Origin: an uncultured Holophagales bacterium
GTDB taxonomy: Bacteria > Acidobacteriota > Thermoanaerobaculia > Multivoradales > UBA5704
Direction of reading: 5' to 3'
Length of the DNA: 64,000 nt
Assembly: GCA_963842525.1 (NCBI GenBank)
Contig: CAWJGT010000001.1
Location: 352,001 to 416,000, forward strand
Shown: positions 52,792 to 64,000 of the stretch, piece by piece
Layout of the letters: every line of letters starts with the position of its first letter
Position numbering within the stretch: position 1 is the stretch's first letter
Program-made: the position numbers and the translations under genes
Notes under the pieces: model-generated
Told to the model about the DNA's origin: nothing
Seen by the model: only the letters and a program-made list of their open reading frames with translations
The model's database searches: none

Positions 52792-54726
52792 ATGCCAGGC
52801 GATTCGGTCAATGAGTCGGTCGATGTCCTTGTCTACCTGAACCGGGGTGGCCTTCGGGAGGATGCCGGGCCCGCGGCCGAGGAGCGGAAACGCTGGAAAT
52901 TCGAGTTCTCCTATACCGCCCTGCAGAGCCGGCATATCGGCAATGTCATCTTCTGCTTCGACCCCGGCAATCCCCGAGCCATGATCCGGGCGAACCGGGA
53001 TCTGCGGAAGGCCGTGATTTGTGTCCAGTCGTCCGGCTTCGAGCTCAGCCCGCAGTGGTTCCAGACCGAGCTTCAATCCGCGCTCCGGGCGAAGCCGGGG
53101 CACCTCTTCGAGCCCGAGGAGGCCGAGGGGAAGGCGCTCTTTGAAGCCACCAAGGCGTTCCTCCATTTCGCCGGCGGCCAGATCGCGAACATGAACCTGT
53201 CGTCGATGGAGAAGAAGAGCCGGTTTGGGCCGCGCATGCACAACGGCCACACCGAAGGGCAACTCAAGCTCGATCTCAGCCGCAACGGAAATCTGTCCCC
53301 AACGGACCACCTCGCATTGCTGCGGTTGTGGTGGCTCACACTGGACTGCTTTCATCGAGGGATCGAGGGTGCGCTGCGTCGACAGGTGCTACCGGATGAT
53401 CCGGAGAGCCGGGCGATCCGGGCCACCGTCCTGAAGCTGAGGGCCCACCTCGGCGCGAGCCTGCTGGATTTCCAGGTCTTCGATGACCCCAACCTCCTCG
53501 CCACTCTCCATGAATCGATGCTGGAATGGATCGATTTCAATCTGGGGAACCGCACCCGTGACGACGATATCGATTTCCTGGACAGCCGGCACGAGGAGTT
53601 GGGCGACCTGCTGTTCGAGGTCAAACGGGCGTCTCCACACCTGCTTTCGCCTTTTCGGGGATTGCAGAGCAACGGGGCACCGCCAGCGGTCGGCGATTGG
53701 CGAGAGTCCCGGCATATCGTAGTGCGCGAAGCCGTGCTGTCGGCCCAACGGCTGCCGGACGAACGGCGGTCCCGGGACATCATCGATCGTTATGCGGATT
53801 GTCTCCATCGGACCGGGGATCTGTTCTCGAAGCGGTATGACATCCGTGAGCTCGTGGCGATCAGCAATGCATGGCCGGAGATCCGGAAATCGCCAGCGCG
53901 ACGCCTGCCGCTACGCGAAAGGGCCACGGCATTCCTCAAGGGCACCTGGAGACATCTCCCGTGGCCCTATCCAGCCTTTCTCCTCCTGGGCTTGTTCGGC
54001 TGGCTTCTGTTTGCTTGGAATACATCTGGAACAACCATCCTCAGGCCTTTTACAGAGACTGCCTTTTCGATCGTATTCTCCGCCCAGTACTCGATTGTCT
54101 ATGCTATCCTGGCGTACTTCATCCTGTTCGCACCACTGGCAAGGAAGCTGCGTCTGTTTGCTCAGGCCATGCCGAAGATTCTTGGCAGCCTGATCGTCGG
54201 CTACGTTCCCCTCTGGCTTCCTCAGGAGACATGGACCTTTCCTTTCTACATGAGCTGGGAGGCCGTTCTCGTCTGCACGTTCGTCCTCCTCATCATTTCG
54301 TATCTCTACTTCGCGGTCGAGGTCTCAGGAAAGGTCAAGATGCGAGGAGAGGCCCTCCAGAAGGCAACGGCGGTCTTCCTCATTGCCGCCGCCCAGGCCT
54401 ATTGCATCGGGTTGCTGATCACCGATTTCTCGGCCCGGTATTTCACAGAGGCCTTGCCGGCCTCTCTCGTTGGAGATACGGGTGTTGGACGGAAAACATT
54501 TTCCAACTTGTATGTGATGCTCGACAGCCTGGGGCAAAGTTTTTATATCACGAATCCGCTCTCTCTGTTCGGCCACTTGATCCCGGGCGTCGATCTGTCG
54601 GGCTTCACGAGCCACGAGTTCTGGCTGCTTCCGAAGCTCCAGGTCTTTTGGTTCGGATTGGCGATGTTTATTGCCGTCTTCCTGCACATGCTGTGGGAAA
54701 AAGACGGGATCCTGGAGCGGCTCTGA
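52792..54726 (+). CDS. Hypothetical protein: about 390-aa soluble region plus about six C-terminal TM helices
   Basis: Long uninterrupted ORF, GGGGGAG SD before ATG 52792; no recognisable catalytic motif. Confidence 0.75.
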   Translation: MPGDSVNESVDVLVYLNRGGLREDAGPAAEERKRWKFEFSYTALQSRHIGNVIFCFDPGNPRAMIRANRDLRKAVICVQSSGFELSPQWFQTELQSALRAKPGHLFEPEEAEGKALFEATKAFLHFAGGQIANMNLSSMEKKSRFGPRMHNGHTEGQLKLDLSRNGNLSPTDHLALLRLWWLTLDCFHRGIEGALRRQVLPDDPESRAIRATVLKLRAHLGASLLDFQVFDDPNLLATLHESMLEWIDFNLGNRTRDDDIDFLDSRHEELGDLLFEVKRASPHLLSPFRGLQSNGAPPAVGDWRESRHIVVREAVLSAQRLPDERRSRDIIDRYADCLHRTGDLFSKRYDIRELVAISNAWPEIRKSPARRLPLRERATAFLKGTWRHLPWPYPAFLLLGLFGWLLFAWNTSGTTILRPFTETAFSIVFSAQYSIVYAILAYFILFAPLARKLRLFAQAMPKILGSLIVGYVPLWLPQETWTFPFYMSWEAVLVCTFVLLIISYLYFAVEVSGKVKMRGEALQKATAVFLIAAAQAYCIGLLITDFSARYFTEALPASLVGDTGVGRKTFSNLYVMLDSLGQSFYITNPLSLFGHLIPGVDLSGFTSHEFWLLPKLQVFWFGLAMFIAVFLHMLWEKDGILERL

Positions 54727-54742
54727 GGAGGCGAAGACGACC

Positions 54743-61346: not shown

Positions 61347-63022
61347 ATGAGTGACCCGCATGAGTACGAAGTGACCCCAGGGCTTCCGGAAGGCAAGCTC
61401 GTCCTGGTGATCGATGATGACAAAAACTTTCGGCAGCTCTGCATTGGCAAGCTCAGGAGGGCTCTGACGGAGCGCGCACCGGAAGAGAAGGATTTGAAGC
61501 TCCTCCCAGCGGGTTCTTTGGAGAAGTTCCAGGCCATTCTCAAGATGCTGGAGGCCGACAGCCGGAAAGGCGATCTCGTCTATGCGCTCGTCGACCTTAA
61601 GCTGCCGGCAACGGAACGGCGTGAGGAGCCGAATCAGGCGCCCGCGACCGAGAACGGCAGGGATGTCTGCCGGGCGCTGCGGGAGTGGAACGTTTTGCAT
61701 CTGCTGGTGTCCGGGGCCGGTCGTTCTGATATCGACGAGGTCGTCATCCCTGATCAGATGGACTTCCGGTCCAAGGACGACTTCAACGACCAGGAGACAG
61801 TCAAGGAGATTGCCGAGAGGGATCCTTTGCGCCAAACACAAGACACCGATCATCAGCCTGGATTACTGCGACGTCATCGCTTCTCCGGTCGAAGAACGGG
61901 GGCAGATGAGGCGCCTTCCCCTGGCCTTCAGGTCTTCGTCGATGCGAAGTCTGCGCAACCGCATCCTTGGCAGGGTGGCTCGCGAGGCGGCCTCGGTCCT
62001 GTTCCTCGGTGAGCCCGGTGTCGAATTCGAGCAACTGGCTTGGCTGCTCTTCCGGGAGATCACGCGGAACGGCACTGGACCAGAGCAGGCTCCCAGGTAC
62101 CAGTACCGCATGTTCAACTGCGAGGGTGGAGCATCTCCCATCGATCTGCTTAGGGAGAGTGAGAGACACCTCGATGACCCGCAGGGTCAGCGGCCGCCTA
62201 CATACTTCTTCATCAGAAACCTCCACGTTCTCGACAAGGCCAAGCTCGCGCAGTTTTGCGACGAGCTTGGGAGCTCCTCCAGAGTCCGTCTCGGCGGAGA
62301 CCGCGTTGTCCTGACCCTTTACAAGGGCAAGGGGGATGGAACAGAAAGGCTCCTCGACCTGTTCTGCCTGGCCGGTTTTGATGACTTCGTCCTCCTGGAT
62401 GTTCCTGGGCTTTCCGGGAAGCGGCGCGAGGACATTGAGGTCTATGCAGAATACTACCGGCGCCAACGTACGGATCAGCAGGACAAAACCGTCCGGTTTC
62501 ACCCCTTGGCGCTGAAGCTCATCAAGGACTTGGACTACAAGAGACACTTCAAGGACCTCTCCATCTTCCTGGATGGCCTTTTCCGGGCCGTGGGAGGAGG
62601 TATGATTACCGCGAAGGTCGTCCGCTCCGCTCTGCCAAGCCAGTTCGTGCAGACAGCGGTCCAGGAAATCCTGGACCATATCCTGACGACGGACGCCGAG
62701 GATGAGGAGGCGACCGCGTGGTCTCCAGGCCGTCTTCACGAGATCTGCTCGCAGACTCCTCGTACACCGCGGAGATCAGGAGTCCTCGATGGGCGAGGAC
62801 GAGGCACTGGATCAGTTCTACCAGGAGCTCGAGAGGATTGACGAGGCGCTCCAGCAGGCGAGCCGCCTGGGTACGGAAGGAAAAACGCTGATGGAGGAGC
62901 TCAAGAAACAGAGCCCTGGCTTCTGGCCGTGGAACCGGTACCCATTCTGTCCTCGCCTGATGAAGCATCTCCAACGGAACGGTCTCACGGTGGGCCTCGT
63001 CGAAGTCGAAGCCAAGCCGTGA
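61347..63022 (+). CDS. Receiver plus degenerate sigma54-activator-like AAA+ domain (frameshifts near 61820 and probably 62720)
   Basis: VLVIDDD, LVDLKLP, LVSG; then S.SMR.L, SVLFLGEPGVEFE, FNC, YFFIRNLH.L, VP.L..RREDI. The last 78 codons may be a separate gene from ATG 62789. Confidence 0.68.
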
Positions 63023-64000
63023 AAGCGAATTCGCCCGCCAAGCCGCTGGTCCTCGTCGTGGACGACGATCCCGCCGTCCGTCTGGAGACCTTCTTCGATC
63101 CCGAGCGCTTCGAAGTGGTGCGCTGTTTCGATTGCGAGAGCGCGATCGACGAAATGATTCAGCGTCTGGAAGCTGGAGACGGGGAGGCGTGCTTCGCCTT
63201 CGTCGACATCGTGCTGCCGATCCATCGGGGCTCCAAGGAGATGGACCCCCGGGCCGGCCTCCTGCTCATGCAGGAGCTCAAGCAATTGCGGCCGGGCATC
63301 TTCCTCGTCCCGATTACAGGAAAAGGATGGGGGACGGAGGCCGCCTCGAAGCGTCGGGATCCTCGACGAGGCGAGGACGATCGGCATCTGGGAGTACATC
63401 TCGAAGCCCGTGACGCGGAACGAGGTGCTGGCGGTCGTCGAGAGGGCGATCCGGCAGCACGAGCCGGAAGACGGGGAGGGGAAGGATGCCCTCCTCAAGC
63501 GCTATGCCGTGAGCTTCGGCGGAGGAGAGGTCCGCTACATCGTCAGCGGCGACAAGGTCATGCAGGACGAGGTGATCGGACGGATCGCCATGGAGGGGCC
63601 GAGCGACACTCCCGTGCTGATCAATGGCGAGACCGGTACGGGCAAGGAGCTCGTGGCCCGGGCGATCCACCAGGCGAGCGGGAGGAGGCGCTTCCTCTCG
63701 GTCAACTGCGCCGCAATCCCGGATTCGTTGATCGAAAGCGAGCTCTTCGGGCACGAGAGGGGCGCCTTCTCGGGTGCTGACGGGCGGAGGACCGGGAAGT
63801 TCGAGCTCGCCGACGGCGGGACGATCTTCCTCGACGAGGTCGGCGATCTGAGCCCACCGGCTCAGGCGAAGCTGCTCAGGGTGCTGCAGGAGCAGGAGCT
63901 CGAACGTCTCGGAGGCACGGAGACGATCAAGGTCGACGCCCGCGTCGTGGCGGCGACCAACCAGGATCTGGAAAACATGATCCGGCAGGGACGTTTCCGC
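63019..64000 (+). CDS. Sigma54-dependent response regulator (NtrC-like), frameshift near 63340, runs off the window
   Basis: [81 protein letters not shown] overlap with the upstream stop. Confidence 0.9.

Follow-up and report, generated by a model that had tools for sequence, protein, structure and literature searches.

What kind of system is encoded by the tightly packed genes at the end of a 64,000-nucleotide stretch of DNA (the window) from an uncultured Holophagales bacterium? A reading of the sequence alone had proposed a sigma-54 phosphorelay that did not correspond to any named system. The locus belongs to bacterial two-component signalling, as an unusual variant that can still be recognised as such, and its five genes (g1-g5) are real. 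A sigma-54-linked relay was borne out by a predicted kinase fold, three receiver (REC) domains scoring 90-98% against a profile built from 20 REC domains found in this genome, a working bEBP, and the presence of rpoN in the genome. The gene set is also unnamed in Pfam, NCBIfam and PADLOC, and no description of it was found in a literature search.

A soil-metagenome contig, L011, was used as the intact reference for the operon. It encodes, in order, a membrane protein, a ~1830-aa kinase, a REC with an additional domain, a REC with a dead sigma-54-activator ATPase, and an NtrC-type activator, inside which the L011 sequence stops. The window had been read as six genes, but L011 has five, and the supposed CheY-like protein and the next ORF correspond to one 443-aa gene. 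The features of the locus are given in Table 1. The co-directional, tight packing was confirmed, with all genes on the + strand from 52792. The TGA of g1 is followed by 16 nt containing GGAGG and then the g2 ATG at 54743, and 22 nt separate the g2 TAA from the g3 GTG at 60013. The TGA of g3 overlaps the g4 ATG at 61347, and that of g4 overlaps the g5 GTG at 63019. The proposed excess of A/T-ending codons also held, since both measures are lower in the operon: G+C is 57-63% compared to 67-72% in the flank, and GC3 is 0.67-0.81 (0.89 in the AAA+ part of g5) compared to 0.80-0.95 in eight flank pieces. Two features reported near the operon start were not recovered. No inverted repeat was found in 51900-52850, where a "REP arm" had been placed, and the "TA-like" ORF pair at 51984-52531 gave no match in Pfam or PADLOC.

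Table 1. Features of the locus. Coordinates above 64000 continue the numbering of the window.
Feature	Position	Strand	Remark
g1-g5 operon	52792..64000, continuing to 64733	+	collinear with five intact L011 genes
Putative sigma-70-like promoter of the operon, TTGACC-18 nt-CAGAAT	52676..52705	+	consensus match
Tandem A(A/T)TCTGT pair, candidate g5 operator	52703..52729	+	19 nt apart, overlaps -10 element
g1, 644-aa membrane protein	52792..54726	+	intact ORF
g2, soluble sensor histidine kinase (predicted), ~1749 codons	54743..59990	+	collinear with intact 1828-aa L011 gene
g3 N-terminal part, CheY-like REC	60013..60396	+	stopped by TGA at 60394-60396
g3 C-terminal part, ~300-aa domain without known family	60415..61353	+	frame change at 61286
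g4, REC + dead bEBP-type AAA+ + conserved C-terminal domain	61347..63022	+	frame changes near 61810, 62755
g5, REC + AAA+ + Fis-type HTH	63019..64000, continuing to 64733	+	frame changes near 63354, 64192
Convergent candidate target operon	69803-64738	-	ABC importer genes
Sigma-54 promoter TGGCACCTGCTTTGCT	69890-69875	-	TGGCAC-N5-TTGCT, 11/11 consensus positions
Second tandem A(A/T)TCTGT pair	69948-69976	-	one of 3 pairs in genome

The product of g1 is a membrane protein, as proposed, although the number of helices is less certain than the six first given. A soluble N-terminal part of ~385 aa precedes a C-terminal membrane region, in which four to five strong hydropathy segments and some weaker ones indicate 5-6 TM helices. 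The large soluble domain was rightly called unrecognised: g1 gave no match in Pfam, NCBIfam or PADLOC, and none of its six full-length homologues (48-72% identity) carries a Pfam domain. The AF2 model of g1 was unusable (pLDDT 54.4). When g1 was compared with X1, contigs of a ~90%-identical metagenome relative, 25 of the 36 differences listed within 53895-54159 were at third codon positions.

The second gene was described as a multi-GAF HisKA/HATPase kinase of roughly 1750 aa. The size is correct, and the product consists of five homologous repeats of ~250-290 aa, DHp and CA domains, and a ~225-aa tail. The histidine-kinase core was confirmed by predicted structure, although HisKA and HATPase_c, like GAF, were undetected by Pfam or NCBIfam in all the kinase pieces. 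The AF2 model (744 residues) has a pLDDT of 80.9, and all 36 of the Foldseek matches listed were sensor kinases, phytochromes or complexes of these (E 4e-8 to 2e-5). With VIA-align, model residues 243-511 matched DHp and CA with a Z of 15.6 for 4u7n_A, and the Z for HK853 was 14.4 over 229/237 residues. The nearest ESM Atlas clusters to the C-terminus were GHKL/HATPase_c (0.94-0.95), which we take as a lead only. The intact L011 kinase gave no match in Pfam or NCBIfam, phmmer against the PDB found no match for g2, and phmmer against 1.84 billion representatives found 11 matches, all from its own family. The kinase retains the invariant H, the N-box and the G2-box, and H1345, N1495 and GGGSGTG were invariant in all four aligned homologues. 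The G1 box (DxGxG), however, reads YDRVVIP, and ATP binding could therefore be impaired. The repeats are mutually homologous (85-99% in 9/10 pairs), and their identity as GAF is weakly supported: scores against this genome's GAF_2 profile were 28-59% for three of six repeat profiles and at most 1.8% for the other three.

The next two genes were found to be a two-part and a three-part receiver protein. The CheY-like receiver at the start of g3 was upheld, with a score of 97.9% against the REC profile (hhalign) and a Pfam Response_reg match of E 1.1e-6, under the curated cut-off. The C-terminal part had been called a pseudo-receiver; this reading found no support, with a score of 0.5% against the same profile, and Pfam gave no match for this part. 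The two halves are fused in L011, and the L011 protein is 53% identical to g3 over residues 1-420 (tblastn). The true C-terminus of g3, ending in GELEEYVEALECDFLQEGEDNE before the stop, lies in the next frame after the frame change. In g4, which was correctly read as a receiver with a degenerate AAA+, the REC scores 90.0% and the AAA+ is homologous to that of g5 with the Walker motifs lost. The g4 family matches g5 at 95.3% (hhalign, E 2.4e-8, 354 columns), residues 334-414 match AtoC 303-382 (E 1.6e-5), and one of seven g4 homologues carries AAA_lid_14. Walker A is replaced by GxPGVEFEQ and Walker B by FIxNLH, the GAFTGA loop is missing, and no HTH was detected by Pfam. The dead motifs are conserved in all eight rows covering the Walker A region, and the C-terminal domain has its own signature, FWPW..RYP.CPRL...LTVGLV. 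This family-wide conservation argues for a selected function, and the alignments support g4 as a paralogue of g5 conserved in a catalytically dead state.

The live member of this pair is g5, whose NtrC-like character was evident. Sigma54_activat matches it with an E of 9e-59 (1.4e-64 for the L011 copy), and it has Walker A (GETGTGK), the GAFSGA motif and Walker B (FLDEVG). Its HTH_8 match is weak, and its REC scores 98.2%. Against the NtrC equivalog, g5 covers model positions 1-458/463 with 312 bits. The pairing of a dead and a live activator, as claimed from the sequence, stands. The claim of four receiver proteins does not, since the operon has three REC domains and the fourth, a stand-alone REC, is outside the window in a convergent operon.

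Parts of the locus resemble known systems. As in NtrB/NtrC-type systems, there is a DHp and CA core (by predicted fold), an activator with REC, Sigma54_activat and Fis-type HTH, and a sigma-54 promoter nearby. In contrast to those systems, g2 is ~1800 aa with five unrecognised repeats, a ~225-aa tail and no HisKA/HATPase_c match, the cassette adds the novel membrane protein g1 and two further REC proteins, and g5 is below the NtrC equivalog cut-off of 558.6 bits. In tandem GAF/PHY kinases such as bacteriophytochromes, an alpha/beta sensor module is joined by a long helix to DHp, as in g2; among the matches listed, model residues 31-511 aligned with full-length bacteriophytochrome 9eut_A (VIA-align Z 13.4, rmsd 19.1). 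However, g2 has no chromophore-binding signature, and GAF was not found in its repeats by Pfam or a PDB sequence profile. HrpR and HrpS are both working ATPases and, to our knowledge, lack receivers, whereas g4 lacks Walker A, Walker B, GAFTGA and HTH, and both g4 and g5 carry receivers. Like g4 and g5, HrpR and HrpS are two paralogous bEBP-type genes adjacent in one operon, and in Pseudomonas syringae they are described as co-dependent tandem bEBPs (PMC3105312). By analogy, this suggests that g4 and g5 may form mixed rings. No HTH and a different conserved C-terminal domain are seen in g4, which lies directly upstream of a working paralogue, whereas VpsR retains a domain for binding DNA and works on its own at a promoter of the sigma-70 type. 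VpsR is described as an atypical or degenerate bEBP-like regulator (PMC6158489), and it resembles g4 as a bEBP-derived REC-AAA+ protein without the residues needed for sigma-54 work.

The DNA around the operon points to a candidate output. A consensus scan upstream of g1 found one sigma-70-like site compared to 0.1 expected, and L011 has the same arrangement there (TTGACC-18-CAGGAT). At the place of the tandem motif pair, L011 has ATCTGTAG and an inverted CTACAG. The whole genome (9.95 Mb) contains 381 single A(A/T)TCTGT motifs but only three pairs that share a strand and are spaced 15-25 nt apart. Two of these are in the island, at its two promoters, and the third is at an unrelated locus. 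Past 64000, where the sequence-only reading had advised looking, there are a perfect -24/-12 promoter and candidate output genes. The promoter is 72 nt before the ATG of a binding-protein gene; no other such site occurs within 84 kb, and the whole genome has 17. The operon encodes an NMT1/SsuA-like binding protein (NMT1, E 5.8e-20), an ABC permease (BPD_transp_1, E 1.8e-25) and an ABC ATPase (ABC_tran, E 5e-11), as well as the stand-alone REC and 2-3 unnamed ORFs. This REC shares 38% identity with that of g5 and reaches 97.1% when scored with the REC profile. From the proximity and rarity of these sites, we infer that g5 may act on the sigma-54 promoter and the motif.

That the locus was acquired is also well founded. 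The operon is within a low-GC insertion of 20.4 kb that separates trmFO from a gene which, in a same-genus genome, is 242 nt away from it. The cassette DNA was not found in 30 relatives, and when another 400 genomes from the phylum were searched by profile, 399 gave no match and one a borderline match. The family is very rare, with 6-11 matches among billions of proteins. Homologues of g1, g2 and g4 are on contigs of equal recorded size (36745 and 15208), as are those of g1 and g4 (21997 and 13020), and the gene order is kept across the conserved neighbourhoods, contrary to the scattered occurrence that would have refuted the sequence-only reading.

The copy in the window has 10 frame changes (five in g2, one in g3, two in g4 and two in g5) and one in-frame stop, and g2 is read in six pieces, with changes near 56570, 56990, 58559, 59163-59184 and 59437. 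If the frame changes and the TGA were real mutations, the cassette would be a decaying pseudogene island, dead in this strain. Foreign DNA fits such decay, and so does the density: 10 changes in about 10-11.9 kb of the island, compared to two in ~12 kb of flank and nine in a ~22-kb sample of essential genes, roughly a twofold excess over the latter. However, that sample is itself split in the same assembly, locally with up to three changes per 1.4 kb (rpoB 1, rpoN 3, secA 3, a second secA-like gene 2; none in rpoC, ileS and two dnaE-type genes), and trmFO is split here in contrast to four of four relatives. X1 shows 1-nt indels at 56570, 56989, 59163, 61286 and 62755, at least five of the 10 sites among the matches listed, and several sites are in short homopolymers (TTTT at 56989, GGG/CCCC at 59163, GGGG at 61286). 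Also, g2 keeps 232 of 241 family-invariant residues (96.3%; held-out intact homologues keep 85.8-96.0%), none of its six in-frame pieces contains a stop, and GC3 periodicity tracks every shifted frame. Decay is therefore improbable. Since rpoB, rpoN, secA and trmFO are also split and X1 has 1-nt indels at five sites, the frame changes and the stop are probably assembly errors.

A more serious contender, though still rather unlikely, is that this is an ordinary nutrient-uptake system, in which g2 and g5 are a large NtrB/NtrC pair controlling the ABC importer, the other receivers (g3, g4 and the extra REC) are passive phosphate sinks or leftovers that play no special part in assembly, and g1 is a co-transcribed but unrelated membrane protein. 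In its favour, the one candidate output is an ABC importer of the NitT/TauT type with a sigma-54 promoter in front, g5 aligns with NtrC along its full length, although under the curated cut-off, and relays that branch to sink receivers are widespread. Against leftovers are the family-conserved dead motifs and C-terminal domain of g4. An unrelated g1 is difficult to reconcile with its presence alongside g2 and g4 in L011, the window and four or more other contigs (by recorded size), and with its stop codon 16-23 nt from the g2 start in L011 and the window. The sequence-only reading had also suggested a developmental or conflict-response switch, and nothing pointed to either. A relay that detects infection or stress and governs a toxic or defensive output would suit a variable insertion hotspot with CopG/BrnA-type antitoxin and Uma2 genes at the island's far end. 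Yet PADLOC gave only generic REC/AAA+ matches for the five proteins and none for six neighbouring ORFs, no effector of the nuclease, protease, TIR or pore type turned up in the operon, and the candidate output is a solute importer, which makes a defence role highly improbable.

With modest confidence, we favour an acquired signalling cassette, seen through an assembly with indel errors, that works by a g1-g5 relay. In this relay, g2 would use its five repeat modules for sensing, probably in concert with the co-conserved g1, and would autophosphorylate on the invariant His within the THRLKNDL box. The phosphate would pass to the receivers in g3, g4 and g5. Phosphorylated g5 would bind the tandem A(A/T)TCTGT sites, activate the adjacent ABC importer operon from its sigma-54 promoter, and feed back on the g1-g5 operon through the motif pair over its own -10 element. 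The g4 protein, in which the receiver and AAA+ scaffold remain but both Walker motifs, the loop that contacts sigma-54 and the HTH are gone, would most likely tune the output by mixing into g5 rings or competing for phosphate, and the scaffold or threshold control suggested earlier may be its role. The g3 protein and the stand-alone REC of the target operon may be further phosphate branches or sinks. What we infer from this arrangement are the phosphotransfer steps, the binding of g5 to DNA, the part played by g4 and the connection with g1. Judged by its sequence, the cassette is a horizontally acquired, conserved five-gene unit of a soil acidobacterium.

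Scanning metagenome contigs turned up a single locus, the soil-metagenome contig L011, in which five intact co-directional genes encode a membrane protein (g1, 634 aa), a giant kinase (g2, 1828 aa), a REC domain with an unknown domain (g3, 443 aa), a REC domain with a dead AAA+ domain (g4, 546 aa) and an NtrC-type activator (g5, at least 516 aa). These genes were found by tblastn to be collinear on the window, as seen in the table. The junctions between the genes are tight, with overlaps or SD-like sequences. The sequence-only reading had described six packed co-directional genes; the packed operon was retained and the count was revised to the five of the intact L011 form. 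The window corresponds to G000:C1:352001-416000. The source genome (G000, 9.95 Mb in 34 contigs) has a G+C content of ~67-68%, and the window has 57-63% G+C from 52.0 kb onward versus 67-72% before this point. The island genes have a third-position G+C of 0.67-0.81, with 0.89 for the conserved AAA+ part of g5, and eight flank pieces have 0.80-0.95, which agrees with the earlier remark that codon usage in the island is more A/T-ending than in the flank. Relatives of the family are very scarce: 6-11 were seen among billions of proteins, every one of them metagenomic. A full-text literature search, which covered listings and the starts of abstracts, found no description of the g1-g5 gene set, consistent with the earlier view that it is not a named system.

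Operon genes and receiver domains, in window numbering, with hhalign results against a REC profile
Feature	Position	Strand	REC match (hhalign)	Basis
g1	52792-54726, whole, 644 aa; tblastn match 52807-54720	+		L011 tblastn
g2	tblastn match 54743-59972, six pieces, five frame changes	+		L011 tblastn
g3	tblastn match 60013-61287, across TGA at 60394-60396	+		L011 tblastn
g3 N-terminus			97.9%	hhalign
g3 C-terminal ~300 aa			0.5% (two-sequence query)	hhalign
g4	tblastn match 61383-63001, three pieces	+		L011 tblastn
g4 N-terminus			90.0%	hhalign
g5	tblastn match 63019-64568, three pieces; gene end 64733, past the window	+		L011 tblastn
g5 N-terminus			98.2%	hhalign
Stand-alone REC of importer operon			97.1%	hhalign

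The plus-strand coding phase of the island shifts repeatedly without gene boundaries, with 10 frame changes in 11.9 kb, and these could be either real breaks or errors of the assembly. One soil-metagenome sequencing run matched the stretch (word share 0.05) and provided X1, a ~90% identical relative that is not the source strain. X1 contigs differed from the window by single-base indels at 56570, 56989, 59163, 61286 and 62755, which are 5 of the 10 frame-change sites; the other five, near 58559, 59437, 61810, 63354 and 64192, do not occur among the matches listed. X1 shows intact frames in a relative and cannot settle the window's own sequence. Essential genes of the source genome were also found to be split. 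rpoB lies in two frames (G000:C9:670320-674532), rpoN has three frame changes in 1.4 kb (C34:61951-63364), secA has three (C23:266680-268993) and a second secA-like gene has two; rpoC, ileS and two dnaE-type genes are whole, giving 9 changes in ~22 kb for the sample. In the flank of the island, comparison with relatives of the same genus shows trmFO (50573-51912) split against all four and a small gene near 48381 split against both of two. Within g2, none of the six in-frame pieces contains a stop. Of the 241 residues invariant among seven intact homologues, the pieces retain 232; the homologues themselves, held out one at a time, retain 85.8-96.0%. Several of the sites lie within short homopolymers.

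Because of the X1 indels, the split essential genes, the kept invariant residues and the homopolymer sites, the breaks are probably not real, and we consider assembly error a very likely source of the island's frame changes. Two points count against this explanation: changes are roughly two times as dense in the island as in the essential-gene sample and roughly five times as dense as in the compared flank, and X1 is another strain. The split rpoB, rpoN, secA and trmFO look like indel errors that occur in patches throughout the genome. Many genes of this assembly, even essential ones, appear broken through indel errors, and apparent pseudogenes in it are not trustworthy without the reads.

A search of 5.8 billion protein clusters gave only six homologues of the membrane protein g1, every one metagenomic and full length (624-656 aa, 48-72% identity). 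No Pfam domain is present in any of them. The AF2 model of g1, built on a 7-row alignment, was of low confidence (pLDDT 54.4), and the ESM Atlas returned no usable match for residues 1-385. A contig scan with the g1 alignment gave no relative in reference genomes among 40 pattern matches. When 401 genomes of the phylum were searched with the g1 profile, it matched its own genome and gave one borderline match (56 columns, E 9.5e-4), which was taken as chance; the profile was absent from 399 of the 400 other genomes.

The second gene had been read as a multi-GAF kinase of the HisKA/HATPase type. Neither the intact 1828-aa g2 of L011 nor any of the window pieces matched a Pfam or NCBIfam family, including HisKA and HATPase_c. 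A phmmer search with the last 582 residues found no match in the PDB, and one with the last 579 residues against 1.84 billion representatives found only 11 proteins, six full-length relatives of 1705-1816 aa and five fragments. An AF2 model of residues 1085-1828 of the L011 protein (11-row alignment) had a mean pLDDT of 80.9, and all 36 of the Foldseek rows shown were sensor kinases, phytochromes or their complexes (E 4e-8 to 2e-5), with a probability of 1.00 for the CA domain of the predicted fold. By VIA-align, model residues 243-511 matched DHp+CA cores, including 4u7n_A (Z 15.6), HK853 (Z 14.4, 229 of 237 residues aligned) and many others, and residues ~328-511 matched the isolated CA domains 9qjg_A, 3a0t_A and 8dx0_B (Z 14.2-14.9, rmsd 2.5-3.0).

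The key residues of g2 were largely consistent with the predicted fold. H1345 of the L011 protein (THRLKNDL) is invariant in 4/4 homologues and lies within the long DHp helix of the model (217-280), in an H-box that may resemble the HisKA_2/HWE type. Among the nucleotide-binding boxes, the N-box (IYAENAVKA, Asn invariant) and G2 (GGGSGTGLYNA, GGGSGTG invariant) are conserved, and the G1 position reads YDRVVIP, in which the Asp is retained and the glycines are lost. Features in the ESM Atlas pointed to GHKL/HATPase_c clusters (0.94-0.95), which serves as a lead only. Together, the model and the residues suggest that g2 has a sensor histidine kinase core, with a DHp hairpin that carries the conserved His and a CA domain of GHKL (Bergerat) fold. 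The earlier assignment thus held for fold and key residues and failed for membership of the HisKA and HATPase_c sequence families. In the g2 tail, the motifs DNTxTGF and GAVGxxFLAM, together with the helix and strand order of model residues 609-724, hinted at a second CA-like domain. hhalign of the tail with the kinase segment gave 0.2%, and such a domain would be speculation.

Upstream of the core, g2 contains five segments of ~250-290 aa (R1-R5) that are mutually homologous, with hhalign values of 85-99.4% in 9 of the 10 pairs and 8% for R1-R3. Each repeat ends in a hydrophobic hairpin followed by the helix F..E.D..DV....R.FF.T.Q. No GAF domain was found in g2 by Pfam, or among PDB sequences by a 9-row profile of the repeats. 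Alignment by hhalign with 16 GAF_2 domains of this genome gave 48% when the repeats were pooled; taken singly, R4 gave 59%, R2 28% and R1, R3 and R5 at most 1.8%. These matches span only ~40 columns at the C-terminal hairpin; the kinase and tail controls gave 0.5% and 0.1%. The model of the fifth repeat (residues 1-215) has helices around a six-stranded sheet and a long helix leading to the DHp; the structure searches were filled by the kinase core. This model fits a GAF- or PAS-like sensor module, by tests that are weak. The kinase has five homologous repeats, and their identity as GAF domains is weakly indicated.

The N-termini of g3, g4 and g5 and the stand-alone REC of the importer operon discussed below were compared by hhalign with a profile built from 20 REC domains found in the source genome, and the values in the table indicate that all four are homologous to REC. 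By eye, the receivers of g3, g4 and g5 have the acidic pair (E/D)D, the Asp of the hhhD strand, the T/S and the K, and all three have an insertion after the Asp. Pfam Response_reg scored under its cut-off in g3 and g5 and did not match g4. The pseudo-receiver that had been suggested, the C-terminal part of g3, was recognized neither by the REC profile, with a query of two g3 sequences, nor by Pfam.

g5 matched Sigma54_activat (PF00158, E 1.4e-64) and AAA_lid_14 (E 1.4e-18), with a weak match to HTH_8 (E 0.0078). It has Walker A GETGTGK, Walker B FLDEVG and the loop GAFSGA, a T-to-S variant of GAFTGA, and is by these features a standard REC-AAA+-HTH sigma-54 activator. The g4 family (7 homologues) aligned with g5 at 95.3% by hhalign (E 2.4e-8), collinear over the REC, AAA+ and lid regions; g4 also matched the AtoC lid (E 1.6e-5), and one g4 homologue has PF25601. 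In all 8 rows covering Walker A, GxPGVEFEQ replaces GETGTGKE. Walker B is FIxNLH in place of FLDE, the shortened loop region lacks GAFTGA, g4 matches no HTH model, and the protein has its own conserved C-terminal domain. Since g4 is without the Walker A Lys, the Walker B Asp-Glu, the GAFTGA loop and an HTH, it was not classed as an activator. The loss of these motifs could have come about by decay; the family-wide pattern supports instead a dead state that is a conserved trait of the g4 family. With the motifs intact in g5, the earlier proposal of paired dead and live sigma-54 activators is supported.

Next to the operon, the distance between trmFO and the homologue of the gene at 72.3-73.2 kb differs among related genomes. 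It is 242 nt in the same-genus genome G002 (L021, G002:C128 8562-8804), 8.2 kb in G003 (L019, G003:C389 2975-11163) and 20.4 kb of low-GC DNA in the window genome, and by these lengths the gap looks like an insertion hotspot. When the DNA from 52600 to 64000 was compared with 30 relatives, only the last ~400 nt matched, which are those of a generic sigma-54 AAA+ domain. The window HslU is 87-90% identical to that of MAGs titled Thermoanaerobaculia or Acidobacteriota, and synteny with relatives resumes at ~72.3 kb, just after a Uma2-family gene. No tRNA gene was found at the island borders, and no terminator-like site at 52300-52900. A REP arm and a TA-like pair beside trmFO had been placed just before the operon start; there is no inverted repeat in 51900-52850, and neither Pfam nor PADLOC supported the pair, at 51984-52541.

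Several other elements were seen around the island. The piece at 51984-52541 (~560 nt, at the left edge) contains a 108-aa ORF on the minus strand without a known family, and recurs at 78-85% identity, in non-syntenic positions, in three same-genus genomes (G001:C205, G002:C89 and G005:C127). The right end of the low-GC insertion has a CopG/BrnA-type antitoxin gene (PF12441, E 8e-31) at 70985-71320 (-) and the Uma2-family gene (E 3e-8) at 71329-72186 (+), which are 6985-7320 and 7329-8186 in L002, the stretch past the window. Copies of the ~150-nt intergenic elements at 46665-46821, 48803-48946 and 50388-50555 are present, at 80-92% identity, on many contigs of the source genome and also in genomes of the same genus; they lie between housekeeping genes and look REP/MITE-like. 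A defence system was also considered and set aside, as PADLOC gave generic matches only.

Past the window, a minus-strand gene set ends at 64738, convergent with g5, which ends at 64733. Inspection for -24/-12 promoters beyond 64000 had been advised, and a perfect TGGCAC-N5-TTGCT site, TGGCACCTGCTTTGCT, was found at 69890-69875 (-); a binding-protein gene has its ATG 72 nt downstream. No second perfect site occurs in the 84 kb scanned; the genome has 17 versus ~7 expected from base composition, and rpoN is present. By sequence, the site is a predicted sigma-54 promoter. The operon it precedes encodes an NMT1/SsuA-like binding protein (NMT1, E 5.8e-20), the stand-alone REC, which is 38% identical to the g5 receiver, an ABC permease (BPD_transp_1, E 1.8e-25), an ABC ATPase (E 5e-11, a fragment) and two or three unnamed ORFs. 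With these components of a NitT/TauT-type ABC importer, the operon is a candidate output of the island. The two or three ORFs at its end, 64738-66764 (-) (L002 738-2764), have no Pfam match, and the last, 64738-65715, resembles by eye a radical-SAM-type enzyme's C-terminal half.

Upstream of the 69890 promoter, at a distance of 60-90 nt, there are two copies of A(A/T)TCTGT with a spacing of 21 nt. A further pair, with a spacing of 19 nt, overlaps the -10 element of a sigma-70-like promoter before g1. The genome has 381 single copies of this motif and only three same-strand pairs 15-25 nt apart, two of them in this island. The same promoter, TTGACC-18-CAGGAT, stands upstream of g1 in L011, where ATCTGTAG and a CTACAG in inverted orientation occupy the corresponding place. 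g5 is the natural candidate to bind the pairs, because it is the sole cassette protein with a DNA-binding domain, and we infer that it may do so. The third pair (23 nt apart, G000:C7:55503-55747, minus strand) is ~50 nt upstream of a 59-aa ORF whose leader-like N-terminus ends in GG and whose tail is rich in Cys, Thr and Ser; this ORF looks like a ribosomal-peptide precursor. This pair could be a second g5 target or could be due to chance.

The results show which parts are present, their folds and homologies, the insertion, the promoter and the statistics of the motif; how the cassette components most likely interact is inferred. Input would be taken by membrane-anchored g1 together with the g2 repeats, and g2 would phosphorylate g3, g4 and g5. 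Phosphorylated g5 would activate the sigma-54 promoter of the importer and feed back on its own operon. g4 may tune the output, either as a subunit of mixed rings with g5 or by drawing off phosphate, and the REC within the importer operon may add induced negative feedback. The island would thus work like an NtrB/NtrC-type relay with extra branches. A stronger version is that this is a portable, self-contained sigma-54 regulon with its own sensor pair (g1 and g2), operator motif, target promoter and importer, in which the receiver-controlled, ATPase-dead g4 co-assembles with g5, so that ring composition, and not g5 phosphorylation alone, sets the threshold. We think that this version is unlikely to be correct; if true, sigma-54 transcription would have in dead/live activator pairs a general gain control that phosphorylation can tune.

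The literature search found paired or degenerate bEBPs. Among these, the nearest analogies to the g4/g5 pair are HrpR/HrpS, a co-dependent paralogue pair (PMC3105312), and degenerate bEBP-like regulators such as VpsR (PMC6158489). Neither matches g4, which bears a receiver, is ATPase-dead, has no HTH and lies directly upstream of its working partner g5.

The protein families of the island are truly unclassified, and the logic is that of recognizable two-component signalling, in a tidy, testable layout. Since the family is very rare, its ecological weight is small, and its value lies in mechanism. If our reading holds, three protein families without a Pfam or NCBIfam entry would join two-component signalling, namely the membrane protein g1, the g2 repeat module (~250-290 aa) and the domains at the C-termini of g3 and g4. 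The system is tractable, with a single kinase, three or four receivers and one candidate each for promoter and operator motif within 20 kb, and would offer a compact case for the role of a conserved, catalytically dead paralogue beside a working sigma-54 activator.
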